DNA of 64,000 bases from Minisyncoccota bacterium (GTDB lineage Bacteria; Patescibacteriota; Minisyncoccia; Phycocordibacterales; UBA6899): positions 129,844 through 193,843 of the forward strand of contig DATEZQ010000003.1 of NCBI GenBank assembly GCA_035583355.1, in the 5' to 3' direction. The notes under the pieces are model-generated. The model searched no databases. It had not been told where the DNA came from and was given only the letters and a program-made list of their open reading frames with translations. Shown in pieces: positions 6,161 to 12,360 of the stretch. The stretch's first letter is position 1, and each line of letters starts with the position of its first letter. The translations under genes were made by a program, and so were the position numbers.

Positions 6161-7669
6161 TTATTTCACACGGTATTTGTTGCGAATTTCCTTCACTTCT
6201 TTTTCTTCCTCACTTGCGCGAGTACGCTTCCCTTCTTCGCCTTTCGCAAGAAGTACCTCTTGAGGAAGCATCGCGAATTCTTTTGCGGTTCGCTCGAGCC
6301 ATTCGGTTGTATTGCGCTCGGGGTCCTCAAGCACCTCATCAAAGAGTGCATTGAGGATGGCACCAATGCGCGGACCTGCAGGTTCATCGATGGTCTCCAT
6401 GATTTTTGCACCATCAATCTTTAGCATCTTCACTGATACTGGCGCGCGCATCGCTTCTTCAATCATCGAGTGATATTTGCGCAAGCGATACGGTGTCTCC
6501 ATTGGACGTCCAGTTCCTATACGATCACATGCGCGCACATTCATAAGGTCCCAGACTAATTCAGGTCCGACATTCGCAACAATGCGACGCACTGCGGAGA
6601 GTGTGATCGTCTCTATATCAGAGAAGAACATGTGATAGCGCACGAGTTGTGTGGACTTGAAAATGATTTCGCGAGAATATCGAAGGCGCTCAAGAATTTT
6701 CTTCGCCATCTTTGCGCCGATTACTTCATGTCCATAGAATGTCCACGTCTTTTTCTCCTCTGACCACCTGCGTGATGCAGGTTTGCCAACATCATGAAGT
6801 AATGATCCGAGTCGAACATGAAGTGGCCAAGAGCGATCGGCTGCATGTTGAAGGGCTCGAAGATTGTGCTCCCATACGTCATAGATGTGGATTCCCTTCT
6901 GTTCGCACCCTAGCCCCTCGATAAGCTCAGGGCAAACATAGGTGAGTAAACCCACACGATGGAGGACAAGAATGCCTTCCATTGGTTTCGCACTCATGAG
7001 CATTTTTGAAAATTCGTCACGCACACGTTCCATGGCTATCTTCTCGACAAGCGGAGCGTGAGAAATTACTGCTTCAAGAGTTTTCTCCTCGATAGTGAAA
7101 TCAAGTTGTGCGACGAAACGCACCGCACGCATGACGCGAAGTGCATCCTCAGTGAAACGCAAGTGTGGATCACCCACAGCGCGGATGGTGCGCTTTTTGA
7201 TATCGCTTACTCCGTCGTAAGGATCGATGAGCTCATCACGGACGACATTATATGCGATAGCGTTCATAGTAAAGTCGCGACGCTGCAGATCCTCATAAAG
7301 GCTCTTTGAAAATTGCACGCTGTCAGGGCGGCGAAAATCGCTATATGTAGATTCTGTTCGATAGGGTGTTATCTCAACAATGCGCAACGTTGCACGTTCG
7401 GTATCATTCTCTGGGATTGTTTCATTTACTACTCCGACAGTGCCAAAATCATTCTCATAGAATGTATGGGGAAAAAGTTCGATAATCTCAGCAGGCGTGG
7501 CATTCGTGGTAAAGTCCCAATCTTTCGGAGTCTTTCCCTCGAGGAGATCTCGGGTGCAACCACCGACGAGATAAGCTTCGTAGCCTGCGGATTCAAGAGT
7601 GGAAGCAACGGATGAGATTTCGGGTGGGATATTTAGTAGGGGCATAGTTGTGTGTTGCACGTTAAACAA
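6161..7669 (-). CDS. cca: CCA-adding tRNA nucleotidyltransferase / poly(A) polymerase family with HD domain
   Basis: Class II nucleotidyltransferase N-terminus LVGGCTRDLL and a later HDVGK HD motif. Consistent with tRNA genes here lacking an encoded CCA. Confidence 0.8.
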   Translation of the reverse strand: MFNVQHTTMPLLNIPPEISSVASTLESAGYEAYLVGGCTRDLLEGKTPKDWDFTTNATPAEIIELFPHTFYENDFGTVGVVNETIPENDTERATLRIVEITPYRTESTYSDFRRPDSVQFSKSLYEDLQRRDFTMNAIAYNVVRDELIDPYDGVSDIKKRTIRAVGDPHLRFTEDALRVMRAVRFVAQLDFTIEEKTLEAVISHAPLVEKIAMERVRDEFSKMLMSAKPMEGILVLHRVGLLTYVCPELIEGLGCEQKGIHIYDVWEHNLRALQHAADRSWPLHVRLGSLLHDVGKPASRRWSEEKKTWTFYGHEVIGAKMAKKILERLRYSREIIFKSTQLVRYHMFFSDIETITLSAVRRIVANVGPELVWDLMNVRACDRIGTGRPMETPYRLRKYHSMIEEAMRAPVSVKMLKIDGAKIMETIDEPAGPRIGAILNALFDEVLEDPERNTTEWLERTAKEFAMLPQEVLLAKGEEGKRTRASEEEKEVKEIRNKYRVK

Positions 7670-7678
7670 GAAAAAAGC

Positions 7679-7714
7679 GTTTCACGTGGAACTAGTCTAA
7701 TTATATAGACTAGT
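7679..7714. promoter_or_regulatory. palindromic operator-like sites in the cca promoter
   Basis: GTTTCACGTGGAAC at 7679-7692. A perfect 9-6-9 inverted repeat ACTAGTCTA-attata-TAGACTAGT at 7691-7714 lies immediately upstream of the cca start, which is on the minus strand. Confidence 0.4.
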
Positions 7715-7821
7715 GATTAATTTGGTAGGTATCAAGATGCCAGAACTCGCCCCTTCGTCACATCCATATTTCATTTCGCTGTGCTCATGAAATATGGTGT
7801 GCGAGTAGGGCCAGGGCTCGG

Positions 7822-7964
7822 TTGCCCAGGACTCGACACCACTCACAAAGTAATTTAGGAGCAAAGCACCTAAATTACTAAGTGGTGGTCGTCACGGCTC
7901 GGCGACCCTGCGCTGCGCTTCGCGCGAGCGAGGGTGCCCGCCTCCGCCTTTCGAGTCCGGCGGG
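7822..7964. repeat. tRNA-3'-end-mimic element D, downstream of tRNA-Arg
   Basis: Degenerate direct copy of the tRNA-Arg 3' end at 7822-7840 (ttgcccaggactcgacacc). GC-rich hairpin core. Inverted copy of the tRNA 3' end at 7950-7964 (ttcgagtccggcggg). A terminator hairpin at 7981-8007 separates it from the tRNA. Confidence 0.6.
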
Positions 7965-8014
7965 ATCTCGAAAAATTGCGGCGAATAATGCTTCGCATTA
8001 TTCTTGCATTTTTG

Positions 8015-8086
8015 TGCCCCCGCCAGGACTCGAACCTGGGATAACGGTTTCGAAGACCGTTGTGATATCCACTTCACTACAAGGGC
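8015..8086 (-). tRNA. tRNA-Arg (anticodon UCG)
   Basis: Manual cloverleaf: acceptor GCCCUUG/CGGGGGC, anticodon arm ACGGU-CUUCGAA-ACCGU, T-arm CCAGG-UUCGAGU-CCUGG, discriminator A. No encoded CCA. Confidence 0.8.
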
Positions 8087-8238
8087 ATTAATTGTTTAAA
8101 ATACTCTAACCTGGGAAAAGCAAGGCGCTCCGCGCACCAGGCTTGCTTGCCCGATAAGGAGCCGCCACCGCGGCACTGATCAACTCACGCCTTCGCTCTG
8201 CTCAGTCGCTCACGGGTAACGGATTTCTTGACTGTCCC

Positions 8239-8284
8239 GATATCCGCTTCACAACAAGGGCATTAATTGTTTTTTCGAATACTC
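8239..8284. repeat. partial copy of the tRNA-Arg 5' half plus its upstream flank
   Basis: gatatccgcttcacaacaagggcattaattgttttttcgaatactc is about 85 percent identical to 8064-8106, which is the tRNA 5' part plus flank. Confidence 0.65.
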
Positions 8285-8405
8285 AAATTCTTGAAAACTT
8301 GACTGCAAAAACTATGCTCAAAAACGAGCGTAGACACAATATACGTTAAAATGGCTCACTTGCCAAATATTTTAAAATCGGTTAATATACCTCTACAACA
8401 AAAGG

Positions 8406-8476
8406 CGCGGGTATGGTTTAGTGGTAGAATGCGTCCTTGCCAAGGACGAGACGGGAGTTCGATTCTCCCTACCCGC
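8406..8476 (+). tRNA. tRNA-Gly (anticodon GCC)
   Basis: GCGGGUA acceptor, anticodon arm CGUCC-UUGCCAA-GGACG, T-arm GGGAG-UUCGAUU-CUCCC, discriminator A. No CCA. Confidence 0.85.
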
Positions 8477-8484
8477 ACAGCACA

Positions 8485-8707
8485 GAAAAAACAGAGCAAA
8501 GCTCTGTTTTTTCTTTTGTGCTTGCGGGTAGGGAGAATCGAACGGAGAGGGGTCGGGAGAGGAAGCCTCTCCCGTCTAGGAGAGCAGGAGTTTCTTGTTT
8601 CACAAGAAACCCCGTCGAGAACCGTGGGTTCTCGAAGAACTTTGCCGTGCGGGCCCCTTTAGGGTGCGCGAGCAAAGTTCGTGAGATCTCTCCCCTCCCT
8701 ACCCAGG
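8485..8707. repeat. tRNA-3'-end-mimic element A, downstream of tRNA-Gly(GCC)
   Basis: Terminator hairpin at 8491-8505 with flanking A and T runs. Perfect 20/20 inverted copy of the tRNA 3' end at 8523-8542. Hairpins cgagaaccgtgggttctcg and gtgcgggcccctttagggtgcgc. Degenerate direct copy of the tRNA 3' end at 8677-8707. The core is about 75 percent identical to element B in the opposite orientation. Confidence 0.7.
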
Positions 8708-8750
8708 CAAAGCCTGGCTAGGGAGTCCCTGATGTTCCTGGGTTTGTTCA

Positions 8751-9353
8751 GTTGTCCTTTATCCCCACTCTCCACAGCCTTATACACAGACAAAGTGTGG
8801 AAAAACTCACTCAGCTCGTATCCTTCAATGAATTTTTGTTGCTATTGAGCCACTTCACAAAGGACACTGTGGACAACCCTGTGGATAGCGGGGATAACTA
8901 TCATGCAAATGTGGAGTTCGATAGAAGTTTTCCCTAATTTCCGGAAATTTGGCTGTTCCCACCATTACTCAATTGTCTGCCCCCTGCCTCCTCCGATTTG
9001 GCCCATGTCTCTTTGATTTGCCATAGCTCCTTGATCTTATGTGCCTATACACATCATATGCCTAGGTGGTGGGGAAAACTCTGTGGATAGTGGGGATAAA
9101 GGACAAATTAGGGTATTTCCTCACGGAATTGCGATTCCTGGGGCTTTATGCTACAGTAGCGCACCTCTGAGTTCTCAGACAATGTGTGGAAAAATGGAGC
9201 AGCATCCTCGCTATTCCATAGAAATCTTATATTTTAGCCGATATTTTGCCTGTATCTGGGGATAACCCTGTGGATAGTGGGGATAAAGGACATTGATTAT
9301 CTTTGAATTCCTCAATGCACAGTCTTTGCTATTGATATACATAGTTATCCACA
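8751..9353. other. candidate chromosomal replication origin (DnaA-box cluster plus AT-rich region)
   Basis: Four copies, one inverted, of a 26-bp repeat of the form ctgtggatagYggggataaaggacaa at 8751-8779, 8877-8900, 9081-9106 and 9258-9295. TGTGGATAG is 8/9 of the DnaA box TGTGGATAA. Extra TGTGGAAAA boxes. A perfect TTATCCACA at 9345-9353 followed by aatataatttatatttaaaa. Confidence 0.5.
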
Positions 9354-9391
9354 TAATGAATATAATTTATATTTAAAACCGCGAAATACAT

Positions 9392-10445
9392 GTTTCACGG
9401 GAAACAAATTGATATATAATGGGTATATGGATCACAGGATGAGTAATACCGAGGTTGGCACTATGGGTGAAACACTTGCAGTCCGCTATCTCAAATCAAA
9501 GGGATTCTCCATTCTCGCGAAAAACTTTAATATCCCTGGTGTTGGCGAGATCGACATTATCGCTCACTGTGACGGCACTTTTCATTTTGTCGAGGTGAAA
9601 TCCTCATATTCCTTCTCGCTAAACAGTGAATATCACTCTTCTCGTAACTTTGATGATGCGAAAAAGCAACGTATTGCACGAGTTATGCGGAAATACTGTG
9701 ATTTGTATAAGATCGATAGCCCTCGAACTGTAAGCCTCTGCGTTATTTCCTTTTCACGTGAAACATATGATGCTCGCGTATTTTTTGACCCTTTTGTACT
9801 GGTTGACACTATTTGATTTCACGTGAAACGTTGGGACTTGGTTTCATACGAGTGTAATAATATATATTAATTTGGTATTCGAGCTCTGTATTTTCAGCCG
9901 GATTATTGCGCCTGCACGTTTCCCTACTGAAATAGACATTGCTCACCAGGAATCGCTGCAAAATCTGTATGTGGGTCATTACGTAACATGCCATACCCCT
10001 TCCGCTGTGTACTTGAGTATTCTGCATATAATCCAGTTTTCACGTGAAACAAATTGGATATGTGATATCCATAAACAGCCAGACGTTCATGTTCCAGCAA
10101 TGTGTTACGTAGGAACATTATGGTTTCATGTGGAACATGTGATTCTTGGTATTTTGTATTTGATCACTAAGAATGTGTAATAATTACAATTCATGAATAC
10201 CTATTCAGAAGCATATTGTAGCAAATGACCGTTGCGAAGTGTTCAGTACTGTTTCACGTGGAACAGGACATGTCGATCAATGCAATAGCTAAGCTGACCG
10301 TGATCATTGGTCTATGTAGTGCTATGGCTGCTCAGGTATGCATGGATTCTTATATGGCAATTGATATTCTGAATATTTTCTGGAGAACTGCGTGGTTGCA
10401 GAAAGTGATATTGCTGCAAGTTGGTCATTATGTTTCGCGTGAAAC
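9392..10445. repeat. array of 7 copies of the 14-bp palindrome GTTTCACGTGRAAC
   Basis: Copies at 9392-9405, 9751-9764, 9815-9829, 10036-10050, 10123-10136, 10251-10264 and 10432-10445. 9817-10620 is AT-rich with no convincing ORF. Confidence 0.7.
9409..9816 (+). CDS. YraN/UPF0102-family endonuclease-like protein
   Basis: GETLAVRYLKSKGFSILAKNFNIPGVGEIDIIAH...FVEVK. The true start is probably at an internal Met (9439 or 9463). Confidence 0.7.
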   Translation: MIYNGYMDHRMSNTEVGTMGETLAVRYLKSKGFSILAKNFNIPGVGEIDIIAHCDGTFHFVEVKSSYSFSLNSEYHSSRNFDDAKKQRIARVMRKYCDLYKIDSPRTVSLCVISFSRETYDARVFFDPFVLVDTI

Positions 10446-10624
10446 AGAAAATAGGCAATATTCATATGCATTGTTGAGTTACTACGTAACCATTGTAAAC
10501 ATAATTATTATTGTCTGAAAATATTCTTTGTACTATATTTTTCATTATCATTTTATAATAGGCGTAAGCAATAAAGTCTTATGTCCTTTATTTCCACTGC
10601 TGAAATTTTTGTGGTATAATGTAA

Positions 10625-10969
10625 GTGTCTTATAGGGAACTTGTTCCAATTATGTCACATCATCCATTACTCATTGTCAAGGCACGTCATGTAGTTCGCC
10701 ATTCGCATCTTAGTGATGAGGATAAGCAGCTCATGTTTGAGCGCATTCCATATCTTGATCTTGGAATGCTCGCTCTTTTCATTGAGTCTGCTGAAGAGAA
10801 TCCATTTGCACTTGATGCAATTGTGAGTAGTATGAAAAAGAAGCTTGATGCTCGAGGTAATCTCCACCGTTTACATGAGATCCTCGAGAATGAAGAAAAG
10901 GAAATCGCTGACGAGGAAGGAGATGAGACACTTCCGGGTGTTGAATTGAATAATAGCGCAGCAATCTAG
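10625..10969 (+). CDS. hypothetical protein
   Basis: ORF preceded by TGTGGTATAAT, an extended -10. Probable start at MSHHPLL. No family recognised. Confidence 0.4.
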   Translation: MSYRELVPIMSHHPLLIVKARHVVRHSHLSDEDKQLMFERIPYLDLGMLALFIESAEENPFALDAIVSSMKKKLDARGNLHRLHEILENEEKEIADEEGDETLPGVELNNSAAI

Positions 10970-10980
10970 CGAATATCTAT

Positions 10981-12000
10981 ATGAAAGAGCATTTAAACAA
11001 TCCAGAAGAGGAAATGTTTGCAGCATATGGTGAAGACCTTGGCGAGGCTCCACAAGGGGAGTCTGTTGAGGCTGAGCAGCAGTCTGCGGGAGAGGTCCTT
11101 GAGGATTCTCCTATTTCTGACGCTGATCGATATGCAGAGCAGGTGCTCGCGGGCCATTCTCCCGAAGAGAGGGCTGCTGTGGAGAGTATAGTTTCCTCTA
11201 TTGAGAACGTGTACGCAAAGGTAAGTTCTGATGACGTCTTGACCCGAGAAAAAGCTACGGAGGCTTTGCTGGGAACTGCGTTTGCAGCTGCACCAACCAC
11301 AGCCATGGGGCATGAGCAGGAACCATTGTGGAAGAAGGTTCTTACAGGGGCTTCACGGGGTGCCCACGGTGCAGTGAAGGCTCTGGCACTTACTGCAACT
11401 CTTGCAGCTCCTGCTGCAGCACAGGATTACAAGCATCCTAGCCCTGAGATTACTAAAAAAGTTGATTATATATTTGGATCGAGCATTATGGAGCGATTTG
11501 GTGATAGGCGTGGTCACTATAAGAAAGCCTATACAAATCTTGAGGTGCGAAAGAAATTTCTCATCCAGCAGCTTCATGATTTAACTGATGCTCGTCCAAG
11601 AAATACTGCAGAGGAGACTCATATTTTGCGTGTTGAGGCTGATCGTGATGCGAAGCTCGCAGCCCTCCGTGTCGAGCGTACGCTTGAAACTATGTCATTT
11701 GAGAGTCTGCATTCAAATAATCCTGTAGATAAGGCACAGTATGAGGCGAATATTGCCTCGATTGCTGCAAGAGAGGCTAGGGCAATAGAGGAGTGTGAGG
11801 CACAGCTGCTTGCAGAGCATCGTAAGGCGGTTCCAGTAAAGGAGGTTGAAGACTTGCGAAGAGAAATCATTCGAATTGAGAAGAGTGAGGATGAGATTGT
11901 CCAAAGATTCCTCGCGACCCGAAATAACTCGTATAGTTACGGCTCAAGCTGGGGGTTTGGTGGTGGAAGAAACTGGACGCAGTGGGATGGGTATAAATAA
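10981..12000 (+). CDS. hypothetical acidic, coiled-coil-rich protein
   Basis: 339-aa ORF, no family recognised. The ORFs overlapping it on the opposite strand were judged spurious. Confidence 0.5.
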   Translation: MKEHLNNPEEEMFAAYGEDLGEAPQGESVEAEQQSAGEVLEDSPISDADRYAEQVLAGHSPEERAAVESIVSSIENVYAKVSSDDVLTREKATEALLGTAFAAAPTTAMGHEQEPLWKKVLTGASRGAHGAVKALALTATLAAPAAAQDYKHPSPEITKKVDYIFGSSIMERFGDRRGHYKKAYTNLEVRKKFLIQQLHDLTDARPRNTAEETHILRVEADRDAKLAALRVERTLETMSFESLHSNNPVDKAQYEANIASIAAREARAIEECEAQLLAEHRKAVPVKEVEDLRREIIRIEKSEDEIVQRFLATRNNSYSYGSSWGFGGGRNWTQWDGYK

Positions 12001-12020
12001 AAGAGCACAAGTGCTCTTTT
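12001..12020. terminator. bidirectional terminator
   Basis: aagagcacaagtgctctt hairpin plus T-run. Confidence 0.6.
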
Positions 12021-12360
12021 ATTTTTTTTCGACTTCGTCAACATACTCGAGGAAGAGTCTTTCGTCGAACCCTCCACGTTTTTCGCGTTTACTAATTTTC
12101 TTTGCAGAAAGCTCCTCTTTGTCGATCTGGTGGGCAAGGATGATTGCGTCGACAAGCTCAAGTAAGTCTGAGAGTTCGCCGATGATATCTTCTTTGCTTT
12201 TTGCCTCAAGGAGTTCCATTGCCTCCTCAATAACTTTTTGTTTAAGCGCGAGTGCAAATTGTTCATCATTCAGAATCGAGATCTTTGGTGTAGCATTGTC
12301 TGCCGTAATGATTTCGGGAATTCGATCTCGGATAAGTTTGTTGTAGGTGATGCGGGGCAT
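12019..12360 (-). CDS. MazG-like / phosphoribosyl-ATP pyrophosphohydrolase-like NTP pyrophosphatase
   Basis: Start MPRITYNKLIRDRIPEII..., about 113 aa. The upstream part of the ORF overlaps element B and is not coding. Confidence 0.55.
   Translation of the reverse strand: MPRITYNKLIRDRIPEIITADNATPKISILNDEQFALALKQKVIEEAMELLEAKSKEDIIGELSDLLELVDAIILAHQIDKEELSAKKISKREKRGGFDERLFLEYVDEVEKK

Follow-up and report, generated by a model that had tools for sequence, protein, structure and literature searches.

The locus described here lies in a 64,000-nucleotide stretch of DNA from a Minisyncoccota bacterium (positions 129,844 to 193,843 of contig DATEZQ010000003.1, assembly GCA_035583355.1), which is referred to as the window. 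Its gene content is typical of bacteria of the candidate phyla radiation (CPR), and the closest genomes are metagenome-assembled genomes (MAGs) of Candidatus Paceibacterota/Parcubacteria. Between a tRNA locus and a gene of the UPF0102/YraN family the window carries a dense array of boxes for the initiator protein DnaA (8752-9353), and around it lie palindromes that resemble the parS sites of chromosomal centromeres. A preliminary description of the same sequence had recognised the box repeats and proposed either a chromosomal origin (oriC) or a DnaA-titration locus of the datA or DARS (DnaA-reactivating sequence) type. In the following we argue that the locus is probably an origin-proximal DnaA-binding array embedded in a parS centromere, comparable to datA and the DnaA-box clusters of Bacillus, and not the oriC of this genome. 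The array is composed of four copies of a 36-nt triple-box module and three single boxes, the last of which abuts an AT-rich stretch:

8752-8788, minus strand, triple-box module, inverted copy, with boxes at 8759-8767, 8768-8776 and 8780-8788
8787-8805, plus strand, CAGACAAAGTGTGGAAAAA, which includes the DnaA box TGTGGAAAA at 8796-8804
8868-8903, plus strand, triple-box module, direct copy 1, with TGTGGACAA, TGTGGATAG and CGGGGATAA
9070-9105, plus strand, triple-box module, direct copy 2, with TGGGGAAAA, TGTGGATAG and TGGGGATAA, then AGGACA
9176-9194, plus strand, CAGACAATGTGTGGAAAAA, which includes the DnaA box TGTGGAAAA at 9185-9193
9257-9292, plus strand, triple-box module, direct copy 3, with TGGGGATAA, TGTGGATAG and TGGGGATAA, then AGGACA
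9345-9353, plus strand, perfect DnaA box TTATCCACA, from the box scan
9354-9379, no strand assigned, AT-rich stretch abutting the perfect box, best 25-mers 96% A+T

The module consists of three consecutive DnaA-box-like 9-mers, TGGGGAWAA, a 3-nt spacer, TGTGGATAG and YGGGGATAA, followed by AGGACA, and its boxes are arranged head-to-tail at a spacing of 9-12 bp. The start-to-start distances of the direct copies are 202 and 187 nt, which bears out the spacing of about 190 bp given for three copies in the preliminary description. That description had also recognised four copies, one of them inverted, but took the unit to be a 26-bp repeat and placed it at slightly shifted coordinates. Both TGTGGAAAA single boxes are embedded in a repeated CAGACAAWGTGTGGAAAAA (starts 8787 and 9176) and correspond to the extra boxes previously placed at 8795 and 9185, and the perfect box and the AT-rich stretch were found as described. 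When the window was scanned for TGTGGATAA with at most one mismatch, 12 of the 25 matches were located in 8759-9353, giving 12 boxes per 600 bp, where shuffled sequences predict 13.8 boxes for the whole 64-kb window and approximately 0.13 per 600 bp. Counting three extra boxes with two mismatches within the modules, the array totals 15 boxes. The two open reading frames (ORFs) at 8752-8937 and 9041-9265 had rightly been judged spurious, as they show no coding conservation and only the box segments match relatives, on both strands. It is clear from these results that the box array is confirmed and is stronger than first described. An independent assembly, Logan contig L085, is 100% identical to the window across the array. 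Several short-read assemblies made independently are interrupted at the array or right next to it (L083 stops at window position 8641 and L085 starts at 8648; L172 and L173 begin 0.5-1 kb upstream of the CCA-adding-enzyme gene), and given these breaks the locus is prone to be absent from MAGs or split in them.

The gene order RNase Y...yraN, gap, CCA enzyme-xth-xer is common to approximately 40 related genomes, and in these the interval from tRNA-Gly and the CCA-adding enzyme to yraN carries the triple-box module together with a parS cluster, a class-wide conservation that the preliminary description had missed. Nearly all of these relatives have a single module copy 100-250 bp upstream of yraN, often with an inverted partner, and their composite module reads TGTGGATAA, CYN, TGTGnnTAn, TGTkkATAA, ArGACA. 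The module is expanded in the subclade of the window, with four modules and 12 boxes in L171 and eight boxes each in L174 and L175, the CCA-adding enzymes of which are 88%, 74% and 70% identical to that of the window, respectively. Identity between the window and L171 is 81-85% in the modules and 36-41% in the spacers that separate them, and it therefore appears that selection acts on the boxes.

The same synteny bears on the possibility that the repeats are iterons of an integrated plasmid or mobile element, to which the tyrosine recombinase gene at 1181-2125, the tRNA genes and, beside the array, a tRNA 3' end in inverted copy could be taken to point. However, 26-39 related genomes have the recombinase gene and an exonuclease III-like gene as conserved neighbours in the chromosome, so that this "integrase" is no sign of a mobile element. 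Furthermore, a rep gene is absent, plasmid and phage records show no similarity, and the repeats are DnaA boxes in modules approximately 190 bp apart instead of abutting units. On the grounds of conserved synteny, lack of plasmid or phage similarity and lack of a rep gene the mobile-element origin was rejected, and we regard it as exceedingly unlikely.

The second component of the locus, also absent from the preliminary description, is a set of ten parS-like palindromes:

7653-7668 (2 mismatches) and 7678-7693 (3 mismatches to TGTTTCACGTGAAACA), no strand assigned, two parS-like palindromes at the start of the CCA-adding-enzyme gene
8596-8611, no strand assigned, parS-like palindrome within a GC-rich hairpin block
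9391-9406, no strand assigned, parS site TGTTTCACGGGAAACA with 1 mismatch, just upstream of the yraN promoter region
9750-10446 (starts 9750, 9815, 10036, 10122, 10250 and 10431), no strand assigned, six parS-like sites from the 3' end of yraN onward, in a stretch of short uncharacterised ORFs

These are all the parS-like sites (14-16 bp, GTTTCACGTGAAAC, at most three mismatches) in the 64-kb window. They fall within 7653-10446 on both sides of the array, and three of the ten carry only one mismatch; the number expected by chance is 0.33-0.37 for the whole window. The chromosomal parS consensus, bound by ParB, is TGTTNCACGTGAAACA, and parS sites are typically found in the origin-proximal fifth of bacterial chromosomes (PMC7022226). 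Because ten sites matching this consensus lie around the array, we take the locus to be a predicted partition centromere as well as a DnaA-box array, with ParB as its putative ligand. The sites are clustered, by the evidence given below origin-proximal, and conserved in relatives: in the 20-kb loci of 40 genomes, all 89 parS-like sites are found between -2 and +3 kb relative to the start of yraN. Scanning the larger ORFs of the window revealed no ParB domain. The GC content of the window is lowest (0.39) in the approximately 800 bp past yraN (9816-10650), where all ORFs are short and uncharacterised. Five of the parS-like sites are found there, and so is a partial module tail, TGTCCTTTATTTCCAC (10583-10598). 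In L175 ten parS-like sites crowd into 11398-12183, between xth and the CCA gene.

The module is always positioned 100-250 bp upstream of yraN and stays at that end of the gap even where the gap is long, which would fit with the boxes being mainly operators, where DnaA acts as a transcription factor for yraN and/or the adjacent tRNAs with no role in replication control. Fifteen boxes over 600 bp, some of them up to 650 bp from the promoter, are however far beyond the need of an operator. In addition, the boxes persist although YraN diverges fast (50% identity between the window and L171, compared to 88% for the adjacent CCA-adding enzyme), and the tight interleaving with parS suggests a role at the level of the chromosome. 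We therefore find it quite improbable that the boxes serve mainly as operators, although DnaA-dependent regulation of yraN can coexist with the explanation preferred here.

Strand composition was used to relate the array to the direction of replication. Since part of the raw-skew signal came from the divergent yraN and CCA genes, GC skew was measured on the plus strand at third codon positions (GC3) and split by gene orientation, and the window was extended leftward to -19.7 kb with a Logan contig of the same population. The raw GC skew of the window alone was ambiguous. Among the relatives, 18 of 24 loci had an origin-like raw skew, and in 13 of 22 the gap contained the cumulative minimum. 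Over the 84 kb between -19.7 and +64 kb almost every gene, whatever its orientation, had a positive GC3 skew, with pooled values of +0.16 for minus-strand genes to the left of the array and +0.12 and +0.20 for plus-strand and minus-strand genes, respectively, to the right of it. The array is thus not located at a negative-to-positive switch in this genome, where no GC3 inflection was seen at the array, and the same applies to L090, L171 and L174. The leading strand is usually G-rich, and under this rule the replication forks would traverse the array from the CCA side toward yraN.

No dnaA gene had been noticed near the array in the preliminary description, and neither dnaA nor dnaN was found from -19.7 to +64 kb in our search with Paceibacteria DnaA and DnaN sequences. 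A scan with Paceibacteria DnaA retrieved 80 dnaA loci (L091-L170), in which two boxes precede dnaA by approximately 70 bp, the dnaA-dnaN spacer contains a further one to five, and jag and yidC are neighbours; no parS sites were found at the Paceibacteria dnaA loci scanned. Of the 26 dnaA loci with enough flank, 21 have a negative GC3 skew before the dnaA/dnaN switch point and a positive one after it, whichever way the genes are oriented. The dnaN gene of the window's subclade was sought with the DnaN protein of L175. One match, P0243, lists a longest contig of 108,931 bp, as does the CCA protein P0123, and this is the size of the European Nucleotide Archive (ENA) contig that carries the L171 array; another match, P0247, lists 61,356 bp, the size of the L174 contig. 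P0243 is carried by further contigs too. From the matching 108,931 bp we infer that the L171 array and dnaA-dnaN share a contig, with the origin beyond the visible 10 kb on either side of the array.

The P0243 locus, L176, has the order type IV secretion system (T4SS) genes, jag, yidC, rpmH, rnpA, yidD, dnaA, a 435-bp spacer and dnaN. Here the GC3 skew is -0.14 to -0.29 in every gene through dnaA and +0.18 in dnaN and the next gene, and the spacer holds TTATCCACA, TGTTGATAA, weaker boxes and AT-rich runs, so that by its composition and boxes it has the appearance of a textbook origin. We consider the dnaA-dnaN spacer the probable origin of this Paceibacteria lineage. If the genomes are colinear, the origin would lie approximately 28-47 kb from the array on the CCA-enzyme side, the side being given by the skew polarity with support from the matching contig sizes; this distance is an estimate from two NCBI contigs of 49.5 and 49.8 kb, the 47.3 kb of ENA contig that extend past the CCA gene, and a Logan contig of 55.9 kb whose end is at window position 8641. 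The approximately 9 kb upstream of dnaA are mostly a T4SS cluster with 83% of the coding bases on the dnaA strand (e.g. L101 1-9100 and L176 1-5764). According to GC3 the forks from dnaA-dnaN would run against these T4SS genes, and a long head-on gene cluster would therefore adjoin the origin.

With this candidate at hand, the original proposal that the array is itself a functional oriC, displaced from dnaA as in E. coli and with 9354-9379 as unwinding element, can be weighed. Several observations favour it and count against the interpretation preferred here. The boxes are dense, and in this genome the perfect box abuts the 96% A+T stretch with four NAN trinucleotides. The BUS rule asks for a box followed within 16 bp by at least three NAN trinucleotides (PMC8287927), and TTATCCACA is followed after 1 bp by AAT GAA TAT AAT, although the rule is too permissive in AT-rich DNA to be decisive and the trios might be required on the opposite strand. 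As mentioned above, parS sites are usually near origins (PMC7022226). Gene orientation diverges at the array in an origin-like manner, the minus strand carrying approximately 62% of the coding bases left of it and the plus strand 68% of those right of it. Moreover, 13 of 23 relatives show a change of sign in GC3 skew at the homologous gap. The change is clear in L032, L024, L036 and L039, which have the switch at the yraN gap and no dnaA or dnaN within 10 kb, and across all yraN loci the polarity is consistent on the yraN side and mixed on the CCA side. In L032 a complete switch of gene orientation also coincides with the gap, which holds a single triple-box module. In these four relatives the origin may be at the module. 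It further has to be kept in mind that dnaA of this genome was placed by means of a relative with 88% identity, matching contig sizes and skew polarity, that in L175 (9450-15374) dnaN without dnaA directly follows xer with five DnaA boxes upstream of it, and that L092 and four GTDB relatives have dnaA-dnaN at a distance of 5-7 kb from the gap.

On the other side, neither the 84 kb analysed here nor L090, L171 or L174 shows a skew switch at the array, and the uniform skew between the array and its left flank speaks against leftward forks from the array. L171, the nearest relative whose assembly spans the gap, lacks the AT-rich 26-mer (best 25-mer 76% A+T). In the subclade the skew switches sharply at a canonical dnaA-dnaN origin, which together with the 21 of 26 dnaA loci with a switch represents a better candidate than the array. 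We therefore consider an oriC function in this genome unlikely; the array is most probably not the replication start site. The refuting condition that the preliminary description set for an origin, with dnaA elsewhere beside a box cluster of its own and no inflection of the skew at the array, is borne out as far as the available sequence reaches. The variation between the relatives is explained most simply by an ancestrally origin-proximal yraN/parS/DnaA-box block whose distance to the firing origin is altered by rearrangements. Another way to reconcile the switch at the yraN gap in L032, L024, L036 and L039 with its position at dnaA-dnaN in 21 of 26 dnaA loci, as well as in the subclade of the window, would be that the origin domain of Paceibacteria holds two alternative DnaA-box loci, the dnaA-dnaN spacer and the parS-embedded module, and that lineages fire from either, the array of the window being a former or dormant origin kept as a coupler of DnaA and ParB. 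We think of this as a doubtful alternative.

The genes and structured elements next to the array agree with the flanks given in the preliminary description, i.e. a tRNA locus (tRNA-Arg and tRNA-Gly) on one side and a YraN-family gene on the other:

1181-2125, tyrosine recombinase gene, conserved chromosomal neighbour
6161-7669, minus strand, CCA-adding-enzyme gene, left of the array
8014-8086, minus strand, tRNA-Arg (TCG), by ARAGORN and Rfam
8407-8478, plus strand, tRNA-Gly (GCC), which directly precedes the triple-box module in relatives
8484-8514, plus strand, perfect 14-bp hairpin followed by a T run, terminator-like, 3' of tRNA-Gly
8519-8745, no strand assigned, GC-rich block with five perfect hairpins, 92% conserved in L171
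9427-9816, plus strand, UPF0102/YraN-family gene, conserved right-hand neighbour of the array

The hairpins of the GC-rich block are 9-12 bp long with 3-nt loops, and the folding z-scores are -6.1 for the plus strand and -7.2 for the minus strand. The block opens with a 21-nt inverted copy of the 3' end of tRNA-Gly (8523-8543 versus 8457-8477), and its 92% conservation in L171 contrasts with the 36-41% of the neighbouring spacers. No Rfam family matches the block, which could be a structured RNA of a new type or a DNA element. Searching Rfam with the whole window at the gathering threshold, and with 8300-9500 and 7650-8420 at an E-value threshold, gave only four tRNAs and chance matches. Between the CCA gene and tRNA-Gly, further GC-rich blocks at approximately 7730-8010 and 8090-8270 are conserved with L171, and they may represent tRNA genes interrupted by large insertions; at approximately 8200-8270 there is a tRNA-like 5' half similar to tRNA-Arg, although ARAGORN and Rfam call only the tRNA-Arg at 8014-8086 there. 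The low identity of YraN compared to the CCA-adding enzyme suggests either an unusually high rate of evolution for yraN or a hot spot at the locus.

Among known systems the array most resembles non-origin DnaA-box clusters, as it holds more than four to five consensus-like boxes in no more than 1 kb, maintained by selection and probably outside oriC. The datA locus and the Bacillus clusters contain several high-affinity boxes in at most 1 kb outside oriC and are thought to titrate or inactivate DnaA once they have been replicated, and datA adjoins tRNA-Gly genes. Such clusters are reportedly represented by datA of E. coli and by six DnaA-box clusters of B. subtilis, in work attributed to Kitagawa in 1998, Kasho and Katayama in 2013 and Okumura in 2012. 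The array shares with them the multiple boxes within 1 kb and, as at datA, a nearby tRNA-Gly. It differs by having more boxes (15), by its repeated triple-box modules with a conserved AGGACA tail, by being embedded in parS sites and by its conservation at one syntenic site class-wide. The likeness to datA is one of sequence anatomy.

In Caulobacter a few weak DnaA sites in the parS region, 8 kb from the origin, have been proposed to couple initiation with segregation; DnaA binding at the centromere of Caulobacter crescentus was reportedly described by Mera, Kalogeraki and Shapiro in PNAS in 2014. Both systems have DnaA sites within the parS region and apart from the origin, but the array has 15 boxes, its origin is probably 28-47 kb off and it is known from sequence. 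The DARS part of the preliminary proposal is less well supported. DARS1 and DARS2 of E. coli, said to have been reported by Fujimitsu in 2009, are DnaA-reactivating sequences with three closely spaced boxes outside oriC, and the DARS core needs one box in the opposite orientation. The array has the three-box core outside oriC as well, but the boxes of its modules are all head-to-tail, unlike those of a DARS-type sequence. The part of the proposal that fits is the non-origin DnaA-box cluster.

Compared to an oriC with the module of box, DnaA-trio and AT-rich DNA (PMC8287927), the array has similar dense boxes of the same orientation, a spacing of approximately one helical turn and a perfect box abutting AT-rich DNA; it differs in lying off the GC-skew switch, in having no conserved unwinding element and in the presence of a separate dnaA-dnaN origin in the lineage. 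The 16-bp palindromes matching TGTTNCACGTGAAACA are clustered and origin-proximal like the parS clusters of other origin domains (PMC7022226), but with 10 sites in 2.8 kb they are unusually dense, some are inside coding sequence, and they are interleaved with DnaA boxes and not beside parAB.

We propose the following working for an origin-proximal DnaA-binding array embedded in a parS centromere. Each module would nucleate a short DnaA oligomer, and the array, lying near the origin, would be duplicated early in the cell cycle. Once duplicated it could soak up or process free DnaA after initiation, as the datA and Bacillus DnaA-box clusters would do. Alternatively or additionally, the array may place DnaA beside the ParB-parS complex and thereby couple initiation to the segregation of the origin, as has been suggested for the Caulobacter centromere. 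The binding of DnaA, the binding of ParB and any role in titration or coupling are here predicted from sequence features.

We found no published description of such a locus or of a mapped origin in Paceibacteria, and no paper on CPR origins beyond the statement "near dnaA". To our knowledge there is no experimental knowledge of how the ultra-small CPR bacteria initiate and segregate their chromosomes. The present analysis identifies two loci of relevance to this question, the probable dnaA-dnaN origin of one lineage and a separate, class-wide locus in which DnaA boxes and predicted ParB sites are interleaved. Origin finders that rely on box density would probably choose the wrong site in these genomes. 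The array is a candidate for coupling the initiation of replication to chromosome partition in a minimal genome.

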